From the sequence record PZ019084.1: a DNA stretch of 64,000 nucleotides. The stretch is one strand, 5' to 3'. This DNA is from a phage. The position numbers were made by a program, and so were the translations under genes. The notes below the pieces were generated by a model. That model was not told the DNA's origin and did no database searches. It saw only the letters and a program-made list of their open reading frames with translations. Shown piece after piece: positions 36,973 to 49,435 of this stretch (positions are counted from its first letter, which is position 1; every line of letters begins with the position of its first letter).

Positions 36973-37186
36973 ATTCTACTTCCTCACCAGTACATAAATC
37001 ATATTCAACTAAACGAATAGGTTCATGAATGCCATATCCTTGAACAGAAATTTCTGTCGTAGGATAAATTCCATCAATATCACCCATGGTCCACGCTTCA
37101 TTAAATTGCTGTTCGCCTGAATTACTAAACCACTCGGCGAAAGCATTTAACACATCTTTAGAACCTTCAATAATTATCTTTGCCAT
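36965..37186 (-). CDS. hypothetical protein (73 aa)
   Basis: Small acidic ORF. Confidence 0.45.
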   Translation of the reverse strand: MAKIIIEGSKDVLNAFAEWFSNSGEQQFNEAWTMGDIDGIYPTTEISVQGYGIHEPIRLVEYDLCTGEEVEYD

Positions 37187-37548
37187 TACAAGCTCTCAGT
37201 AAAGGTACGAGCGATAACGTCGCGCTGCTGTTCCGGAGTCAGAGAGTTAAAGCGAACTGCATAACCGGATACACGGATGGTCAGCTGCGGATATTTTTCC
37301 GGATGCTTAACTGCATCTTCCAGAGTTTCACGACGCAGAACGTTAACGTTCAGGTGTTGACCACCTTCAATTTTAACTGTAGGCTGTTGTTCAATTTCAA
37401 TTTCACGGGTGTGCAAACCGTAGAAAATTTCTGGGTCTACAAAAGAGTCCTCTTTAAAAGTTTTAGAGACAATAATTCGTGCCTGAATACCATCTTCAAA
37501 ATAAATAGTACCTTTATGTGTGCCTTCAAGAATTTGATATGCTTTCAT
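37186..37548 (-). CDS. autonomous glycyl-radical cofactor (GrcA/YfiD-like)
   Basis: 120 aa; C-terminal half matches E. coli GrcA as remembered, with glycyl-radical motif RVSGYAVRF; coding DNA 37190-37390 is GC-rich unlike its surroundings. Confidence 0.85.
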
Positions 37549-37554
37549 ATAACC

Positions 37555-37935
37555 TCAATTAGAAAATAAATTTATCCAAGACTGTTCTTTAATTAAAAAT
37601 GGCTCAGAATCATATGCCATTAAACTTTGGGTGATTAGTCCTTTAAAAGGCCCATCAATAAATTCCATGGTAAAATATGGAATTTTATTCATTAATCTTG
37701 CATTAGGAGCAGTGCACAAAACTCTGCATCCTTTGAATACGCCTTTTTGTAATTTGTATTGCTTAGGATAAAATTCGCTCAAGACGTTGTTATTTGCCAA
37801 AATTTCAAAATGATTCACCAATTTATTTTTAATAGTTTTTGGCGAAAAATAAAGATATTCGAAAAGTTGCGTATCTGTCATCATTGCATTCCAATTACGA
37901 AAAACTGTGGACGAGTAATACCACCAATGCAACAT
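37555..37935 (-). CDS. hypothetical protein (126 aa)
   Basis: Minus-strand ORF. Confidence 0.5.
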   Translation of the reverse strand: MLHWWYYSSTVFRNWNAMMTDTQLFEYLYFSPKTIKNKLVNHFEILANNNVLSEFYPKQYKLQKGVFKGCRVLCTAPNARLMNKIPYFTMEFIDGPFKGLITQSLMAYDSEPFLIKEQSWINLFSN

Positions 37936-38420
37936 TTACTATTGCAGCAGTGTTGCACAGTTTCAATATGAATATCGTAAATTTTATCCATATCAGGAGA
38001 TTTAACAGGCTCATCGATTATATACAAGATTCGAGAAAGCGATAAACCTCTGAACTTGCTACCTCTATTACCAACAAAACTACGGACAGAATCGGTAAAT
38101 AAGCGAAATCGAATATCATCGCTAGAATAACGAGAAAATTCTTTTTTAATGTGGCCCGCAGAAATTTTAGCGTAAGCTGAAGTATTAGAAAGAACAATAA
38201 CTGTTCCACCGTCATACAGCCAATTAGCAGCAAAATTAGTCACAGCAGTTGATTTACCAGATTGGCGTCCACCATCTAGTCGAAGTGTACAATATTGTTT
38301 AAGCAAGTCTTCAAATGGTGGGATATAATCGTTTTTACAAATTTCTTCTACTCTAGCATCAGAATGGTGTGTAAAAGCATTCATCAGGGATAGATAAGGA
38401 CCAGTTAAAAATGTTCTCAT
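37881..38420 (-). CDS. P-loop NTPase (179 aa from MRTFLT; track ORF starts at 38468)
   Basis: Walker A GGRQSGKST, Walker B YIIDEP. Confidence 0.55.
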   Translation of the reverse strand: MRTFLTGPYLSLMNAFTHHSDARVEEICKNDYIPPFEDLLKQYCTLRLDGGRQSGKSTAVTNFAANWLYDGGTVIVLSNTSAYAKISAGHIKKEFSRYSSDDIRFRLFTDSVRSFVGNRGSKFRGLSLSRILYIIDEPVKSPDMDKIYDIHIETVQHCCNSKCCIGGITRPQFFVIGMQ

Positions 38421-38573
38421 TTTATTCTCTCTAAATTTGGGCCATTCCATGGCGCATGAATTGTCCATTTCTGTATTTACCCATTACCGCACTTGGGCTC
38501 GACCTTATTACAGGTTGGCGGGAATCCCTCATAGAATCATGAGGTCCAGCTTGTTCCCATATTTCTTATTTGC

Positions 38574-39047
38574 TTATTTGAATGATTTGACGTACTGAAT
38601 AGAGCCTTTGCTATTCACGAAAGCGATTTTACCATTTTTATTATACATGGTAGCAGTACGCTGATAACCATAAGTTTGCTTACCAGATTGATAACCAACT
38701 AATGCAAAATTATCTTCACCCATTTTATTCTGTTTAGCGCGGATGCGTTCATGACCGTGTGCCATAAGAACCTTAGCGTCGCCAGTTGCAATGGATCTAC
38801 GAGTTTTTTCATCTTCAACTGTATTAACAAAATCGTCAAATGAATCAAATTTAGCATGGGATTTATTATACAGTTTTCCATCTACTGCATAATTATATCC
38901 TTGTACATCCATCTCAACTTCTGTACCGTCATCCAATACAGCAGTGATTTTTTGACCTTTTTTAAATTTCAAAAGATCAGTAAAAGATTCAGCAATAATT
39001 TGAGAATTAATAGCTGCTTCAGTAATAAATTCTTGGTATGTTTTCAT
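38574..39047 (-). CDS. capsid-targeted internal protein (157 aa)
   Basis: N-terminal capsid targeting sequence MKTYQEFITEA with prohead-protease site ITE/A. Confidence 0.7.
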   Translation of the reverse strand: MKTYQEFITEAAINSQIIAESFTDLLKFKKGQKITAVLDDGTEVEMDVQGYNYAVDGKLYNKSHAKFDSFDDFVNTVEDEKTRRSIATGDAKVLMAHGHERIRAKQNKMGEDNFALVGYQSGKQTYGYQRTATMYNKNGKIAFVNSKGSIQYVKSFK

Positions 39048-39153
39048 GTATATCCTTTAAATGTAAATAATTTTATTCTTTAAGTTTGGGACAATTCACA
39101 CATGAATTGTCCATTTCTGTATTTATCTATTACCGAGTTCGGACTTGGCTTTA

Positions 39154-39732
39154 TTAATTACCACGGGCTGCATTAGCAACGGCGTAAGCATACTGAACAT
39201 TAGCGTCCTTAAACGTACCTTTAGAGGTATCTATTTCTGCCTTAAAGCCGCCTTTAGCCATAACATCAGCAAATTCTTTACGGAAGGCCATTGCATCAAG
39301 ACCTTTCCATGATGATTTATGCTTGGCGAATTCAAGACCAGCGTAGTTGACAGCCTTAGCTAATTTATTATCAATAACCCATTTACCAGCTTTAGGCACA
39401 AACACCGGGCCTTTCTGTTTAGAGAATAGTTTTAAATTCCAGCGACGAAGGTCACCGTCAGCTTTAACAAAAGCTGCATCCAAGTTACTAGCAACAACAT
39501 CTTGAATATGGCCAAATTTAAGCCCATCAACTTCAATATTTAGATCAGTACGCCAGCGAAGTCCTTCCCAAGCGAAAGCTTTAAAGTCGGAAGCTTTTGT
39601 GGCTAGATATCGTTCAAGTGGAGCAGTTTTAGGGTCAAAGCCGTTTCCACCACGATAGTTCCACTCGTCCTTATTAATGCCTTTGGCCTTTTCCGCAGAA
39701 GCTTCAGCGATAAATTCTTTATACGTTTTCAT
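39154..39732 (-). CDS. capsid-targeted internal protein (192 aa, IPIII-like size)
   Basis: N-terminal MKTYKEFIAEA targeting sequence. Confidence 0.7.
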   Translation of the reverse strand: MKTYKEFIAEASAEKAKGINKDEWNYRGGNGFDPKTAPLERYLATKASDFKAFAWEGLRWRTDLNIEVDGLKFGHIQDVVASNLDAAFVKADGDLRRWNLKLFSKQKGPVFVPKAGKWVIDNKLAKAVNYAGLEFAKHKSSWKGLDAMAFRKEFADVMAKGGFKAEIDTSKGTFKDANVQYAYAVANAARGN

Positions 39733-39764
39733 GTGTTTCCTTTAAATATTTTAATTAGTAACTA

Positions 39765-39802
39765 TGAATATACTATCACAGTTCTAGGAGAAAGTAAACA
39801 AC
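39765..39802 (-). promoter_or_regulatory. T4-type early promoter
   Basis: GTTTAC (39800-39795). Confidence 0.5.
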
Positions 39803-39803
39803 T

Positions 39804-40334
<531 letters not shown>

Positions 40335-40790
40335 TTAAAAGAGGCTGTTCATTATTCGGTAAAGTGAAGGACCCATCACATATTGCCATTGAGCACGAGG
40401 AATAAGAGCAAAAGCATCCATCTCTGGAATCATAACGCCATCTTTATTTTCAAAATAAGACTCGCAATAGCAATTTCTAAACATCTCATGCTCTACTGGA
40501 ATCGTATAATAAAATAACTGTAAGTCTTTATTACTAGAATATTTAAATACACCTAGGTCTTCTAGAAGGTCTGGATTATAATTGCTAAAACCGGTCTCTT
40601 CTAAGCATTCTCTTCGTGCTGCATCTAGTGCGCTCAAATCAGAATTTTCTACACGGCCTTTTGGAATATCCCAGCGATGTGCCATCATTCCAGGCTTACG
40701 AGAACCAGTAACTCGTCCCATAAATAAATCTTTATCTTCTGTCATAAAGATAATACCAGCTGATAGTGTTTTCATTTTAATTTCCTGCAT
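40335..40790 (-). CDS. nudE: Nudix hydrolase
   Basis: Nudix box GRVENSDLSALDAARRECLEETGF. Confidence 0.88.
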   Translation of the reverse strand: MQEIKMKTLSAGIIFMTEDKDLFMGRVTGSRKPGMMAHRWDIPKGRVENSDLSALDAARRECLEETGFSNYNPDLLEDLGVFKYSSNKDLQLFYYTIPVEHEMFRNCYCESYFENKDGVMIPEMDAFALIPRAQWQYVMGPSLYRIMNSLF

Positions 40791-41260
40791 TCAGTGATAA
40801 AGTTATTTAAATTTTGAGCATATTTCTTTTCATCAAAAATCTTTTGCTGCCTACGTAAACGCCATGGCATTTCAATGAACACGCACCATATTCCTGATAG
40901 TACTGCTGCTGTAAAAATATTAACAAGTATGATTAAAAGAATCCAATCTCCCGTTCTGCCTACTGGACTTTCTCCAAAGAAGCAAAATACAAATGATGTC
41001 ACAGGAAAACTAATAATATACCACAGAATCATAATCTTATCTGTGAACCAATCAGCGTTCGTTAATTTAGCGCGACCATTATGAATACACACGAATTTAT
41101 CATCTGTTGCAGTAGATGGCTTAACTGGTTGATATCCCATTCTAAACTCCCTAATCAGCAAATTTTTCATATCTTCGGAACAGCCATTCCAGTCAACTCT
41201 ATCAACTGAAATGCCATCGTCCCCATCATCTAAATCATACCAGCGAGTTTTTAAAATCAT
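40772..41260 (-). CDS. membrane protein (162 aa), tandem paralogue family
   Basis: Two TM helices; C-terminal motif ECRKLK. Confidence 0.55.
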   Translation of the reverse strand: MILKTRWYDLDDGDDGISVDRVDWNGCSEDMKNLLIREFRMGYQPVKPSTATDDKFVCIHNGRAKLTNADWFTDKIMILWYIISFPVTSFVFCFFGESPVGRTGDWILLIILVNIFTAAVLSGIWCVFIEMPWRLRRQQKIFDEKKYAQNLNNFITECRKLK

Positions 41261-46295: not shown

Positions 46296-46371
46296 TGGTC
46301 GAGGCAGTAGGGATCGAACCTACGACCTAGGACTTAGAAGGTCCTTGCTCTTCCTTCTGAGCTATGCCCCG
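46296..46371 (-). tRNA. tRNA-Arg: tRNA-Arg (anticodon UCU)
   Basis: Manual cloverleaf: acceptor CGGGGCA/TGCCTCG, anticodon loop CTTCTAA, T-loop TTCGATC, CCA encoded. Confidence 0.88.
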
Positions 46372-46375
46372 TAAT

Positions 46376-46451
46376 TGGGGTGACCGATGGGAGTCGAACC
46401 CATGACTACGAGAATCACAATCTCGAGTTCTACCAACTGAACTACGGCCAC
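46376..46451 (-). tRNA. tRNA-His: tRNA-His (anticodon GUG)
   Basis: Manual cloverleaf: acceptor GTGGCCG/CGGTCAC, anticodon loop TTGTGAT, CCA encoded; no encoded G-1. Confidence 0.8.
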
Positions 46452-46565
46452 ATTAATACCTACTCCAACAATCAAGATGTCTTCACACGAAATTAAGAGA
46501 AGAGTGATCAGTTCAACCCCTATAATCGCGTCAAGTAGATATTAATGTGACAGTTGTCACAAATT

Positions 46566-46640
46566 TGGCGGACGTGATAGGATTCGAACCTATAACCAAT
46601 CGCTTAACAGGCGATCGCTCTGCCATTGAGCTACACATCC
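46566..46640 (-). tRNA. tRNA-Asn: tRNA-Asn (anticodon GUU)
   Basis: Manual cloverleaf: acceptor GGATGTG/CACGTCC, anticodon loop CTGTTAA, T-loop TTCGAAT. Confidence 0.8.
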
Positions 46641-46644
46641 AAAT

Positions 46645-46731
46645 TGGTGGGGAGTGATGGAGTCGAACCACCCGAGTCGCAATGACAATGGATTTACAGT
46701 CCACACCGCTACCTCTACGGGATAACTCCCC
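46645..46731 (-). tRNA. tRNA-Tyr: tRNA-Tyr (anticodon GUA), long variable arm
   Basis: Acceptor GGGGAGT/ACTCCCC; anticodon arm GGACTGTAAATCC resembles E. coli tRNA-Tyr; 87 nt. Confidence 0.8.
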
Positions 46732-46744
46732 TTAATTCTTAATT

Positions 46745-46819
46745 TGGTGGCCCTGGGTGGAATTGAACCACCATCTGGCGATTATGAGTCGCTTGCTTGA
46801 ACCTTCCAGCTACAGGGCC
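46745..46819 (-). tRNA. tRNA-Ile: tRNA with anticodon CAU (Ile2/AUA-reading type, or Met)
   Basis: Acceptor GGCCCTG/CAGGGCC; anticodon arm GCGACTCATAATCGC as in E. coli tRNA-Ile2. Confidence 0.8.
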
Positions 46820-46820
46820 T

Positions 46821-46896
46821 TGGTGCTGATTGACGGAATCGAACCGCCGACCTTCTCATTACAAGTGAGTTGCTCTACCTACTGAGCTAAATCAGC
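46821..46896 (-). tRNA. tRNA-Thr: tRNA-Thr (anticodon UGU)
   Basis: Acceptor GCTGATT/AATCAGC; anticodon loop CTTGTAA. Confidence 0.85.
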
Positions 46897-46901
46897 AAAA
46901 C

Positions 46902-46991
46902 TGGCGGAGGCGATAGGATTTGAACCTATGAGTCGCCGGAGCGACTGCCGGTTTTCAAGACCGGTGCATTAAACCACTCTGCCACGCCTCC
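46902..46991 (-). tRNA. tRNA-Ser: tRNA-Ser (anticodon UGA), long variable arm
   Basis: Acceptor GGAGGCG/CGCCTCC; anticodon arm CCGGT-CTTGAAA-ACCGG; 90 nt. Confidence 0.85.
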
Positions 46992-46993
46992 AG

Positions 46994-47067
46994 TCTCCAT
47001 ACAAGGATTTGAACCTTGGACCTCCTGATCCCAAATCAGGCGCTCTACCAAACTGAGCTACACGGAG
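46994..47067 (-). tRNA. tRNA-Pro: tRNA-Pro (anticodon UGG)
   Basis: Anticodon arm CCTGA-TTTGGGA-TCAGG; CCA not encoded. Confidence 0.85.
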
Positions 47068-47077
47068 TAAATTAAAT

Positions 47078-47151
<74 letters not shown>

Positions 47152-47156
47152 AAATT

Positions 47157-47243
47157 TGGTGCGAGAAGTGGGACTCGAACCCACAAGGAAATCATTCCGC
47201 AGCATTTTAAGTGCTGTGCCTTTACCAATTTGACCATTCTCGC
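47157..47243 (-). tRNA. tRNA-Leu: tRNA-Leu (anticodon UAA), long variable arm
   Basis: Acceptor GCGAGAA/TTCTCGC; anticodon arm CAGCA-CTTAAAA-TGCTG; 87 nt. Confidence 0.85.
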
Positions 47244-47244
47244 G

Positions 47245-47317
47245 CTGGGAATAAAGGACTTGAACCTTTGCATCCTGGAATCAAAATCCAGTGCCTTACC
47301 AACTTGGCTAATTCCCA
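47245..47317 (-). tRNA. tRNA-Gln: tRNA-Gln (anticodon UUG)
   Basis: U1-A72 acceptor like E. coli tRNA-Gln; anticodon arm CTGGA-TTTTGAT-TCCAG. Confidence 0.85.
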
Positions 47318-48321: not shown

Positions 48322-48362
48322 GATAGGGTAATAGTATCACAACTAAAACCCTATGTAAACAA
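48322..48362 (-). promoter_or_regulatory. T4-type early promoter
   Basis: GTTTAC (48360-48355). Confidence 0.5.
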
Positions 48363-48378
48363 CTTTGTGAAATATTTA

Positions 48379-48666
48379 TTACAAAAGATTTTTAGCAATA
48401 ATCTTGAGATATGCCGCAGAAATGTGTTTAGCTTTAAACAACGCAGTTTCTTCAGCAGGAGAGATAATGATTGTAGCACCATCCTTTTTAGCAGACCACC
48501 CATCACCTAGGTAAACAGTACCTTTGATTTCTTCGCCATCAACCAAGCTAATCATTGGTTTACCTTCTCGTCCTTTATTTGCTTTAATAACTTCAGAAGT
48601 AAGAGTAGCTTCAGTAATAGTAGAAACCGGGGTAGTTGTAGAAGTAAATTCTTTGAAAGTTTTCAT
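48379..48666 (-). CDS. ipI: internal protein I (capsid-targeted, injected with DNA)
   Basis: 95 aa; targeting sequence MKTFKEF...ITE/A (cleavage would leave 76 aa); position between 57B and tRNAs. Confidence 0.8.
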   Translation of the reverse strand: MKTFKEFTSTTTPVSTITEATLTSEVIKANKGREGKPMISLVDGEEIKGTVYLGDGWSAKKDGATIIISPAEETALFKAKHISAAYLKIIAKNLL

Positions 48667-48689: not shown

Positions 48690-48728
48690 TGAGATAATAG
48701 TATCACTACCTCATCAGCATGTAAACAA
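48690..48728 (-). promoter_or_regulatory. T4-type early promoter
   Basis: GTTTAC (48726-48721), TACTAT -10. Confidence 0.5.
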
Positions 48729-48738
48729 CTTTGTGAAA

Positions 48739-49435
<697 letters not shown>

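Follow-up and report, generated by a model that had tools for sequence, protein, structure and literature searches.

A duplicated non-coding spacer in the internal-protein locus of a T4-like phage and its likeness to stem-loop and early-promoter cassettes

The 64,000-nt stretch of phage DNA analyzed here (sequence record PZ019084.1; the window) belongs to a Tequatrovirus (T4-like phage), whose closest relatives, ECML-134 and Shfl2, share ~94% identity with it over positions 37800-39800. All genes of this region lie on the minus strand, in the order e, ipIII, ip4 and vs.8. On either side of the internal protein (IP) gene ip4 lie two similar intergenic sequences: E1, in the leader of vs.8, and E2, downstream of ipIII (Table 1). 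The two copies are a genuine, homologous, non-coding spacer module in a variable internal-protein region, and on balance we read them as paralogous pieces of one intergenic cassette, similar to the promoter early stem-loop (PeSL) units of T4-like phages, that borders the ipII/ipIII hyperplastic locus on its vs.8 side. A comparison of at least 12 phages demonstrated that the content between e and vs.8 is ipIII-ipII-denV in T4, ipIII-ip4 in the window phage, SA21RB and PST, ip4 only in T2, RB27 and CE1, denV-ip4 in RB51, ipIII only in CT01, and ipIII-ipII plus a denV remnant in W143. The region is the polymorphic ipII/ipIII locus, and E1 always forms the vs.8-side border of the variable segment, regardless of the gene upstream. 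W143 and one further phage (L020) keep a truncated denV remnant upstream of E1. The early-promoter-like sequence upstream of ipIII is the likely origin of early transcripts that run through E2, ip4, E1 and vs.8.

The repeat cores, at 38455-38489 in E1 and 39101-39135 in E2, are identical at 33 of 35 positions, and the two copies are spaced 646 nt from start to start. The ungapped match extends over 56 nt with 82% identity (38455-38510 versus 39101-39156), the 21 nt adjoining the core being only ~60% identical; when small gaps are allowed, similarity extends further to lower coordinates, by way of CCCAAAYTTA..AGAATAAAAT. In the 64 kb there are exactly two occurrences of the 35-mer CATGAATTGTCCATTTCTGTATTTAYCYATTACCG, which was not matched in 100 dinucleotide-preserving shuffles. 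A preliminary description of this DNA, made from the window alone, had reported a 36-nt repeat at 38458-38495 and 39106-39143, just 3' of each IP gene stop, and had suggested duplication or modular shuffling of a regulatory cassette. The repeat is real, with coordinates that were 3-8 nt off, and its second copy does start at the ipIII stops (39151-39156). The first copy does not adjoin the ip4 stop (38574-38576; the ip4 ATG is at 39047), and is instead found 64-120 nt downstream of it, behind another hairpin. The suggestion of duplication fits what was found: an intergenic piece is duplicated, in a locus that evolves by gain, loss and replacement of modules. A search of the whole window returned two copies only, and homologues in related phages proved to be very widespread.

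Table 1. Features of the e to vs.8 region in the window, with occurrences of block B in other phages.
Feature	Position	Strand	Description
e (lysozyme)	39804-40298	-	
Early-promoter-like sequence	39760-39789	-	GTTTAC-N18-TAGTAT, upstream of ipIII; read from sequence
ipIII	39154-39732	-	double stop TAATAA at 39156-39151
E2, 56-nt unit	39101-39156	-	ipIII TAATAA, decayed block B remnant (39150-39129), box, 5' arm of hairpin
Box in E2	39127-39120	-	GATAAATA; one mismatch to TATAAATA
E2 hairpin	39089-39112	-	GGACAATTCA-TGTG-TGAATTGTCC, 10 bp, perfect; ATTTCTGTATTTA follows on the + strand
ipIII-ip4 spacer, right part	39048-39088	-	CAAACTTAAAGAATAAAAT, alignable with E1, then initiation region TATTTACATTTAAAGGATATAC
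ip4	38574-39047	-	157 aa, Pfam DUF7412, MKTYQEFITEA leader; between the two repeat copies
Block A' hairpin	38520-38558	-	GGGAA..CCTCAT-gattct-ATGAGG..TTCCC; 3' of the ip4 stop
Block B	38484-38514	-	CCTGTAATAAGGTCGAGCCCAAGTGCGGTAA, 31 nt; conserved across Tevenvirinae genera, also in unrelated coliphages
E1 core, 56-nt unit	38455-38510	-	inside the vs.8 leader; includes 3' half of block B
Box in E1	38481-38474	-	GGTAAATA; two mismatches to TATAAATA
GGACAATTCATG in E1	38466-38455	-	
E1 imperfect hairpin	38440-38466	-	GGACAATTCATG-CGC-CATGGAATGGCC, 10 of 12 pairs
Small deeply conserved hairpin	38453-38441	-	GCCA-YGGAA-UGGC, within the E1 imperfect hairpin
Variable spacer and vs.8 start	38418-38439	-	purine-rich run resembling a Shine-Dalgarno sequence; probable ATG 38420-38418 (MRTFLTGP...)
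vs.8	37881 to ~38420	-	vs.7 further downstream
Block B in other phages	L053:1501-1539, L054:1501-1532, L057:5349-5371, L059:10589-10611, L062:606-628		

E1, which on the coding strand reads ...GGTAAATACAGAAATGGACAATTCATGCGCCATGGAATGGCCCAAATTTAGAGAGAATAAAATGAGAACA, is part of a ~125-nt non-coding block upstream of vs.8 that is also found in T4, there between denV and vs.8. Matches to the element were obtained in 463 records, T4 included. Across 14 loci, E1 (-147 to -27 relative to the ATG) differs between pairs by 0.014-0.04 on average, compared with 0.095 for the vs.8 coding sequence (0.05 at codon positions 1 and 2, and 0.187 at third positions); the E1 block is conserved more strongly than vs.8 itself, and the vs.8 leader is among the most conserved non-coding stretches in the Tevenvirinae. 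The small hairpin within E1 covaries in other genera (GCCA/TGGC, GGCA/TGCC and GACA/TGTC), and the equivalent of the block A' hairpin was annotated as a terminator by the authors of the SA21RB record. Folding of the whole leader as RNA was no better than that of shuffled sequences (z of -0.35 for sense and -0.98 for antisense), and RNAalifold gave a weak consensus for 22 leaders (-8.2 kcal/mol), which supports local helices only and not one global leader fold. ARAGORN predicted no tRNA-like gene at the element, an Rfam covariance-model search of window positions 37000-41000 returned no match at E<=5 covering it, and literature searches did not retrieve vs.8.

An alignable block lies upstream of vs.8 homologues in other Tevenvirinae genera, among them Gaprivervirus, Dhakavirus, Kanagawavirus and phages that infect Klebsiella, Enterobacter and Citrobacter. 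In these genera the cassette begins with stops (TAATAAAGG), followed by a long imperfect stem-loop (stem-loop A) and block B (ACCTGTAATAAGGTCGAGCCCAAGTGCGGTAA), then by GGGTTTACAT, 16-18 nt and a -10-like hexamer (AATTAT, TACTAT, TAACAT or CATAAT), and it ends with a hairpin GCCA-AGGAA-TGGC, a Shine-Dalgarno (SD) sequence and the ATG. Stem-loop A covaries, both by paired deletions (CTCA..TGAG to CTA..TAG) and by paired changes (GAACG..CGTCC to GAAC..GTTC). In one Klebsiella-type genome (L065) the whole cassette precedes an IP gene (MKTYKEFITEA) and not vs.8. Kanagawavirus-type phages (PEi20, L018/L036, at ~1230-1500; L029 and L051) carry two tandem cassette units upstream of vs.8; in the second unit of this type, a covarying hairpin with a CGC loop (GTC/GAC, GCC/GGC or GAGAC/GTCTC) replaces the conserved B strand.

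The cassettes of the other genera include a promoter that the Tequatroviruses lack. Of 17 non-Tequatrovirus sequences, 12 contain the pattern TTTACA or GTTACA-N16-18-xAxxxT, and the five of the Tequatrovirus type all lack it. Neither window copy (E1 or E2) and no Tequatrovirus-type sequence showed a sigma-70-like -35/-10 pair of the kind that marks PeSL early promoters. The early promoter of the other genera, GTTTAC-N16-18-TAnnAT, stands where Tequatroviruses read GGTAAATACAG, and the alignment places Tequatrovirus GGGTAAATACAG-----AAATGGAC directly over GGGTTTACATACGGATACATGGAC. Because a GTTTAC promoter occupies the position of the box in other genera, what the preliminary description took for a late-promoter-like box looks like the relic of a -35 element: judging from the alignment, the TAAATA box appears to result from remodelling of the -35 region together with the loss of 5-6 nt from the spacer. 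The promoter of the other-genera cassettes agrees with the PeSL promoter consensus of the T4/PST group, TTTACW-N17-TAYWAT (PMC4122927), and with the PeSL design of a stem-loop joined to an early promoter.

E2-type spacers, located between ipIII and the next IP gene, occur in ~17 of the 463 element-matching records. Eight E2 sequences were read (window phage, Shfl2, G4498, ECML-134, ECO07P2, ESh24, VEc74 and W143), each spanning from the ipIII stop to the shared IP translation-initiation region TATTTACATTTAAAGGA; the initiation region TATTTACATTTAAAGGATATAC is also present at T4 ipII. E2 precedes ipII in W143 and ip4 in the other seven, which indicates that it travels with the 3' end of ipIII. 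In T4 the same slot downstream of ipIII holds a PeSL, in which GTTTAC-N17-TATATT overlaps a 14-bp stem-loop; nothing but a 41-nt spacer is present there in SA21RB and PST, and CT01 has a short hairpin together with a precise deletion of ip4. Set against E1, E2 retains CGGTAAT-RG-RTAAATAYAGAAAYGGACAATTCATG; the A' hairpin, the conserved B strand and the hairpin inside block B are all missing from it. Its 3' arm reads TGAATTGTCC where E1 has TGGAATGGCC, and now pairs perfectly, giving the 10-bp hairpin ggacaattca-caca-tgaattgtcc that the preliminary description had correctly noted, with a free energy as RNA of about -13 kcal/mol. One perfect 10-bp hairpin in 64 kb of AT-rich DNA is unremarkable by itself; we regard this one as real because it is conserved in relatives. 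The stem is identical in seven variants while the flanks vary and so does the loop (TGTG, TGTGTG, TGCGTG, ATGCGTGC or CACGCA), and in ESh24 the stem (GGGCAATTCA/TGAATTGCCT) carries a compensatory double change from A-T to G-C. The maintenance of the hairpin is real, and a constant stem, a varying loop and the compensation in ESh24 fit selection on pairing, which may act at the RNA level.

We favor an origin of both copies from a PeSL-like cassette. The sequence comparisons establish the homology of the copies, their distribution and conservation, the loss of the promoter, the lack of coding and the upkeep of the hairpin; a role at the RNA level or in recombination is inferred from these. The ancestral cassette would have comprised TAATAA, stem-loop A, structured motif B, an early promoter GTTTAC-N16-18-TAnnAT (segments C/D), a small hairpin, an SD sequence and an ATG, a form that precedes vs.8 in most genera of the Tevenvirinae and an IP gene in L065. 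In Tequatroviruses, the -35 sequence GTTTACAT has turned into GTAAATAC and the spacer has been shortened by 5-6 nt, changes that leave E1 as a promoter-less leader probably crossed by early transcripts from upstream. E2 would be a secondary, truncated copy in the ipIII-downstream slot of a minority of Tequatroviruses, where a few substitutions and indels in the 3' arm may have produced the perfect 9-10-bp hairpin. As the stem-loop half of a PeSL, E2 could serve as an intercistronic hairpin between ipIII and ip4 that attenuates read-through or stops 3' exonucleases; both the definition of PeSLs and the terminator role of their stem-loops have been described (PMC2839356, PMC4122927). The 35-56-bp direct repeats around ip4 would also suffice in length for excision or insertion of ip4 as a loop by T4-type homologous recombination, a usable patch of <50 bp for T4 recombination having been attributed to Singer et al. 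1982 (PMC2839356). Shuffling of IP genes through this element is plausible, and the genomes examined contain no instance of it.

Comparison with PeSLs (Arbiol et al., 2010, PMC2839356; Comeau et al., 2014, PMC4122927) brings out both likeness and difference. Like a PeSL, the window element is a repeated intergenic unit of ~100 nt in a hyperplastic region, adjoins gene insertions, deletions and replacements, and ends in the SD and ATG of the next gene. Stable stem-loops are present (the perfect 10-bp stem of E2, and the A' hairpin and imperfect 12-bp stem of E1), E2 occupies the slot of a T4 PeSL, and the orthologues in other genera have TTTACA-N16-18-TAnnAT behind a stem-loop. Unlike PeSLs, the window copies have no sigma-70-type promoter, the -35 being replaced and the spacer shortened; the cassette carries a structured block B that is outside the PeSL description; and the element is present in two copies per genome rather than dozens, with no recombinant junction found inside it. 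Canonical PeSL direct repeats do occur elsewhere in the window, at 48331-48373 and 48695-48739 (minus strand), where they flank an ipI-like gene (48379-48666), read tttcacaaagttGTTTACat...gtgaTACTAT and atttcacaaagttGTTTACat...gtgaTACTAT, and each have a stem-loop of their own. Conserved 5' and 3' homology blocks that flank T-even IP genes were proposed as mediators of shuffling by Repoila et al. (1994), as summarized in later papers (PMC4122927, PMC2839356). At the level of those summaries, rather than of the sequences, the window element resembles them as a short, non-coding, conserved block on both sides of interchangeable IP genes that share an MKTY.EF leader; it differs in that the summarized blocks relate mainly to the ipI locus, while the window block borders vs.8 and ipIII and has one truncated copy.

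Several observations weigh against this interpretation. Neither an E2 x E1 recombinant (ipIII, hybrid element, vs.8) nor a junction inside the repeat was found among the genomes examined, and the ip4-less phages CT01, L023 and L024 lost ip4 at another junction, tatttacatt|caaataa. The left 20 nt of E2 (TAATAAAGCCAAGTCCGAAC) are as similar to the start of the other-genera cassette (TAATAAAGGCAAGCCGACC) as to E1, or more so; this left part, of the A-start or unit-B type, suggests that E2 may have originated as an internally deleted older cassette and not as a recent copy of E1. A dead promoter does not explain why the Tequatrovirus-specific C' segment of E1 is so strongly conserved. Overall divergence of E2 between phages is ~10%, no slower than that of neighboring genes. 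The VEc74 loop (L075), CACGCA, is the reverse complement of the TGCGTG of G4498 (L009) between identical arms, an inversion that suggests template switching, which is able to keep the arms of a palindrome alike without selection. Since the mRNA strand has no U-tract, the E2 hairpin is not a classical terminator there. As for the junction used in CT01 (L013, ~1421-1600), it also occurs in L006 besides L023 and L024, and is a precise deletion from the IP initiation region to the last codons of ip4.

A somewhat unlikely alternative is that E2 is a functionless scar of an illegitimate or microhomology event at TAATAA and AGAATAAAAT, whose palindrome was perfected and kept by template switching. 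The inverted loop of VEc74 and the divergence among E2 copies would suit such a scar, as would the short strings shared at both ends of E2, its loss of the cassette parts that are most conserved elsewhere, and its dispensability, E2 being missing from ~96% of related records. What argues against a scar is the preservation of the stem in all eight variants, with one compensated pair, and the contrast between the nearly identical core and its poorly matching 21-nt flank. E2 is also found with two different downstream genes, ip4 and ipII, and so has persisted through further rearrangement.

The similarity of E2 to known intercistronic stem-loops, which include barriers to 3' exonucleases, attenuators and Rho-independent terminators, lies in its stable, GC-closed 10-bp stem between cistrons and in a U-rich run on the + strand; the mRNA strand, which lacks such a tract, does not have the form of a Rho-independent terminator. 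Read on the + strand, each copy is a hairpin with RTTTCTRTATTTA behind it, so that the core could instead be an intrinsic + strand terminator (hairpin plus RUUUCURUAUUUA) for a late antisense transcript, with E2 as a stronger back-up. The transcript could start at AATAAATA, the commonest late-promoter variant, which is present on the + strand at 37500-37507, antisense within vs.6. This + strand AATAAATA does not vary among 20 Tequatrovirus-type loci, although synonymous sites next to it do, and is missing from other genera; it is thus conceivable that a late antisense RNA of ~960 nt crosses vs.7-vs.8 and ends at E1. Several features would suit a terminator of this kind. The 35-mer corresponds exactly to the 3' arm plus the T-rich tail, a tail confined to the Tequatrovirus form of the cassette, and the E1 imperfect hairpin is more stable on the + strand (-8.6 to -9.7 kcal/mol) than on the sense strand (-4.1 to -7.5 kcal/mol), the C/T variants observed in its stem becoming G.U pairs on the + strand only. 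A terminator consensus scan also flagged E2 on the + strand, although the scan was lenient, with 2 hits versus 1.3 expected. We nevertheless consider this reading unlikely: the U-tract is broken up, neither a gene nor a transcript is documented for the + strand here, the Av-05-like phage L025 has AATAAATA on the + strand together with a GTTTAC-type cassette that has no T-tail, and the invariance of ACT ATT TAT TTT may stem from codon or protein constraints.

The T4 late promoter is TATAAATA (reviewed in PMC2988020), a sequence credited to Christensen and Young (1982). It is located ~10 bp upstream of the start and tolerates single deviations, mainly A at -13, the position that deviates most often among 50 listed T4 late sites (A in nine; PMC2988020). 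The preliminary description noted a late-promoter-like box in the repeat, and one can imagine a non-canonical form, G(G/A)TAAATA, that starts just upstream of the hairpin and provides late ip4 or ipII and vs.8 mRNA with a protective 5' stem-loop. The resemblance consists of an 8-bp A/T box, (G/A)TAAATA, on the coding strand and upstream of genes with late-made proteins; IP proteins do accumulate late, no perfect TATAAATA was found between e and vs.8, and GATAAATA (E2 of the window phage, Shfl2, W143 and ESh24, and E1 of RB27) differs from TATAAATA only at -13. Yet the -13 base in question is G, which is not a common variant, and the other copies deviate further: nearly all E1 and four of eight E2 copies read GGTAAATA, with two mismatches, one of them a G in place of the near-invariant A at -12. 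In other genera the box gives way to GTTTACA, and it is wholly missing where the ipIII-downstream slot holds the 41-nt spacer or a PeSL. Time-resolved omics of T4 class vs.8, vs.7 and denV as early in RNA and in protein, and ipII, ipIII and e as early in RNA and late in protein (PMC9697503, supplements 4 and 6). Late read-through can come from two perfect late promoters located upstream of e (40312-40319 and 40325-40332), and the early-promoter-like sequence at 39760-39789 stands upstream of ipIII. A late promoter in the core is thus quite improbable.

The preliminary description further proposed that the repeat carries the 5' end of a gene, starting at ATGGAC (38468) in E1 and truncated to 13 codons (MDNSCVNCPKLKE*) in E2. 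The 13-codon open reading frame (ORF) does exist, but the 16 codons before ATG 38420 are non-coding. In relatives the stretch from GGCCCAAA to the ATG is 14, 15, 16 or 23 nt long, so that its indels do not come in multiples of three, often with a TAG, and the 219-aa Vs.8 annotated in T4 uses a different frame in the upstream region from that of the 195-aa window ORF. With the 179-aa Vs.8 (MRTFLTGP...) as tblastn query, 1008 of 1010 records aligned from residues 1-5, down to 34-40% identity. Taken together, the spacer indels and stops, the frame difference in T4 and the tblastn alignments point to ATG 38420-38418 as the probable true start of vs.8. Neither reading frame nor start codon is conserved among homologues of the supposed coding 5' end, and ATGGAC at 38468 and the 13-codon ORF are chance ORFs, an artefact of ORF extension. 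That the element codes for protein, whether for the N-terminus of Vs.8 (as annotated in T4, RB27 and PST) or for a separate 33-aa ORF (MRDSRQPVIRSSPSAV... in G4498), is highly improbable: window ORFs 37881-38468 and 38431-38532 exist, several GenBank records annotate them and GC is coding-like at ~0.48, but there is no SD sequence, the 33-aa ORF carries a 1-nt deletion in RB27, other genera put the same conserved nucleotides in other frames or have no ATG, and the frame, indel and MRTF-alignment evidence above all runs counter to it. The 33-aa ORF, the extended vs.8 ORF and an antisense 53-aa ORF were each rejected as coding on account of frame inconsistency. Existing vs.8 annotations are likely over-extended in T4 (219 aa; AF158101.6, 64793-64912) and in RB27, PST, ECML-134 and the window (195-196 aa; 38421-38468 in the window), and the 33-aa coding sequence G4498_00124 inside E1 is probably spurious. 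The element is probably neither a late promoter nor a gene start, and the analysis has corrective value in removing both from this locus. It also documents the decay and re-use of a promoter and stem-loop cassette in the IP locus, which carries anti-restriction and host-range cargo.

The part of the cassette that most deserves follow-up is block B, the repeat itself being a modest variant of a PeSL-like cassette. In the window, CCC (38522-38520) and GGG (38482-38480) lie on either side of the hairpin inside block B (ACCT-GTAATA-AGGT, 38515-38502) and enclose it. A blastn search with a non-Tequatrovirus cassette returned 1022 records, and queries with the motif from other phages returned 908 and 1041, mostly T4-like. 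Several phages unrelated to T4 carry ACCTGTAAnAAGGTCGAGCCAAAGTGCGGTAA at 88-97% identity: the rV5-like Vequintaviruses isim, Phage 203 and O157 typing phage 5, the 45-kb phage Ivi, the 70-kb Klebsiella phage Pylas and a 47-kb IMG/VR contig. The closing helix differs by lineage (CCCT/AGGG, CTGGT/GCCAG, AGCC/GGCT, CGCG/CGCG, ACTCA/TGAGT and ATTCA/TGGGT), and cognate flanks fold to -4.1 kcal/mol compared with -2.7 kcal/mol for non-cognate flanks (permutation p ~0.001). In a 17-sequence alignment, 87.5% of cells in helices P2 and P3 are paired versus 77.5 +/- 2.2 in shuffles, a value reached in 0 of 500, and the pair adjoining the inner hairpin is UA, AU, CG or GC with zero mismatches; because the sequences are related to each other, these helix statistics are supportive and not a formal probability.

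Virulent enterobacterial phages that are unrelated to one another (T4-like, rV5-like, the 45-kb phage and Pylas) share block B at >90% identity; it stands between terminators and early promoters there, and often by tRNA clusters of the same orientation. The distance to these clusters in the non-T4 phages is 250-730 nt, with motif and tRNA genes on one strand, and in Ivi the motif follows a strong terminator and stands 20 nt before GTTGACA. The Rfam covariance-model search of window positions 37000-41000 and five block B loci gave no relevant match (E<=5), and literature searches did not retrieve the sequence. No E. coli genome matched, and the exact block B pattern is missing from 185,579 bacterial species genomes, which argues against derivation from a host. 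Sigma-28, sigma-54 and sigma-E consensus sequences were compared with block B by eye and matched poorly. We tentatively propose, as a distinct possibility, that block B (ACCU-GUAAYA-AGGU and CGAGCCMAAGUGCGGUAA with a covarying closing helix) is an undescribed structured nucleic-acid motif common to unrelated enterobacterial phages. If so, the repeat would be the decayed edge of a functional RNA or single-stranded DNA element that moves horizontally between phage families, and E2, which lost this conserved motif, would be a copy that lost the function. A vs.8 leader motif that is common to unrelated phage families and has no Rfam family offers a concrete target in T4.

Elsewhere in the window, a cluster of 11 tRNA genes (Arg, His, Asn, Tyr, Met, Thr, Ser, Pro, Gly, Leu and Gln) occupies 46296-47317 on the minus strand; T4 has eight tRNA genes (PMC4122927, Table 1). 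The product of vs.6 (37186-37548, minus strand) has a C-terminal glycyl-radical motif of the GrcA/YfiD type, and vs.6 is annotated as "autonomous glycyl radical cofactor" in RB51 and CT01.

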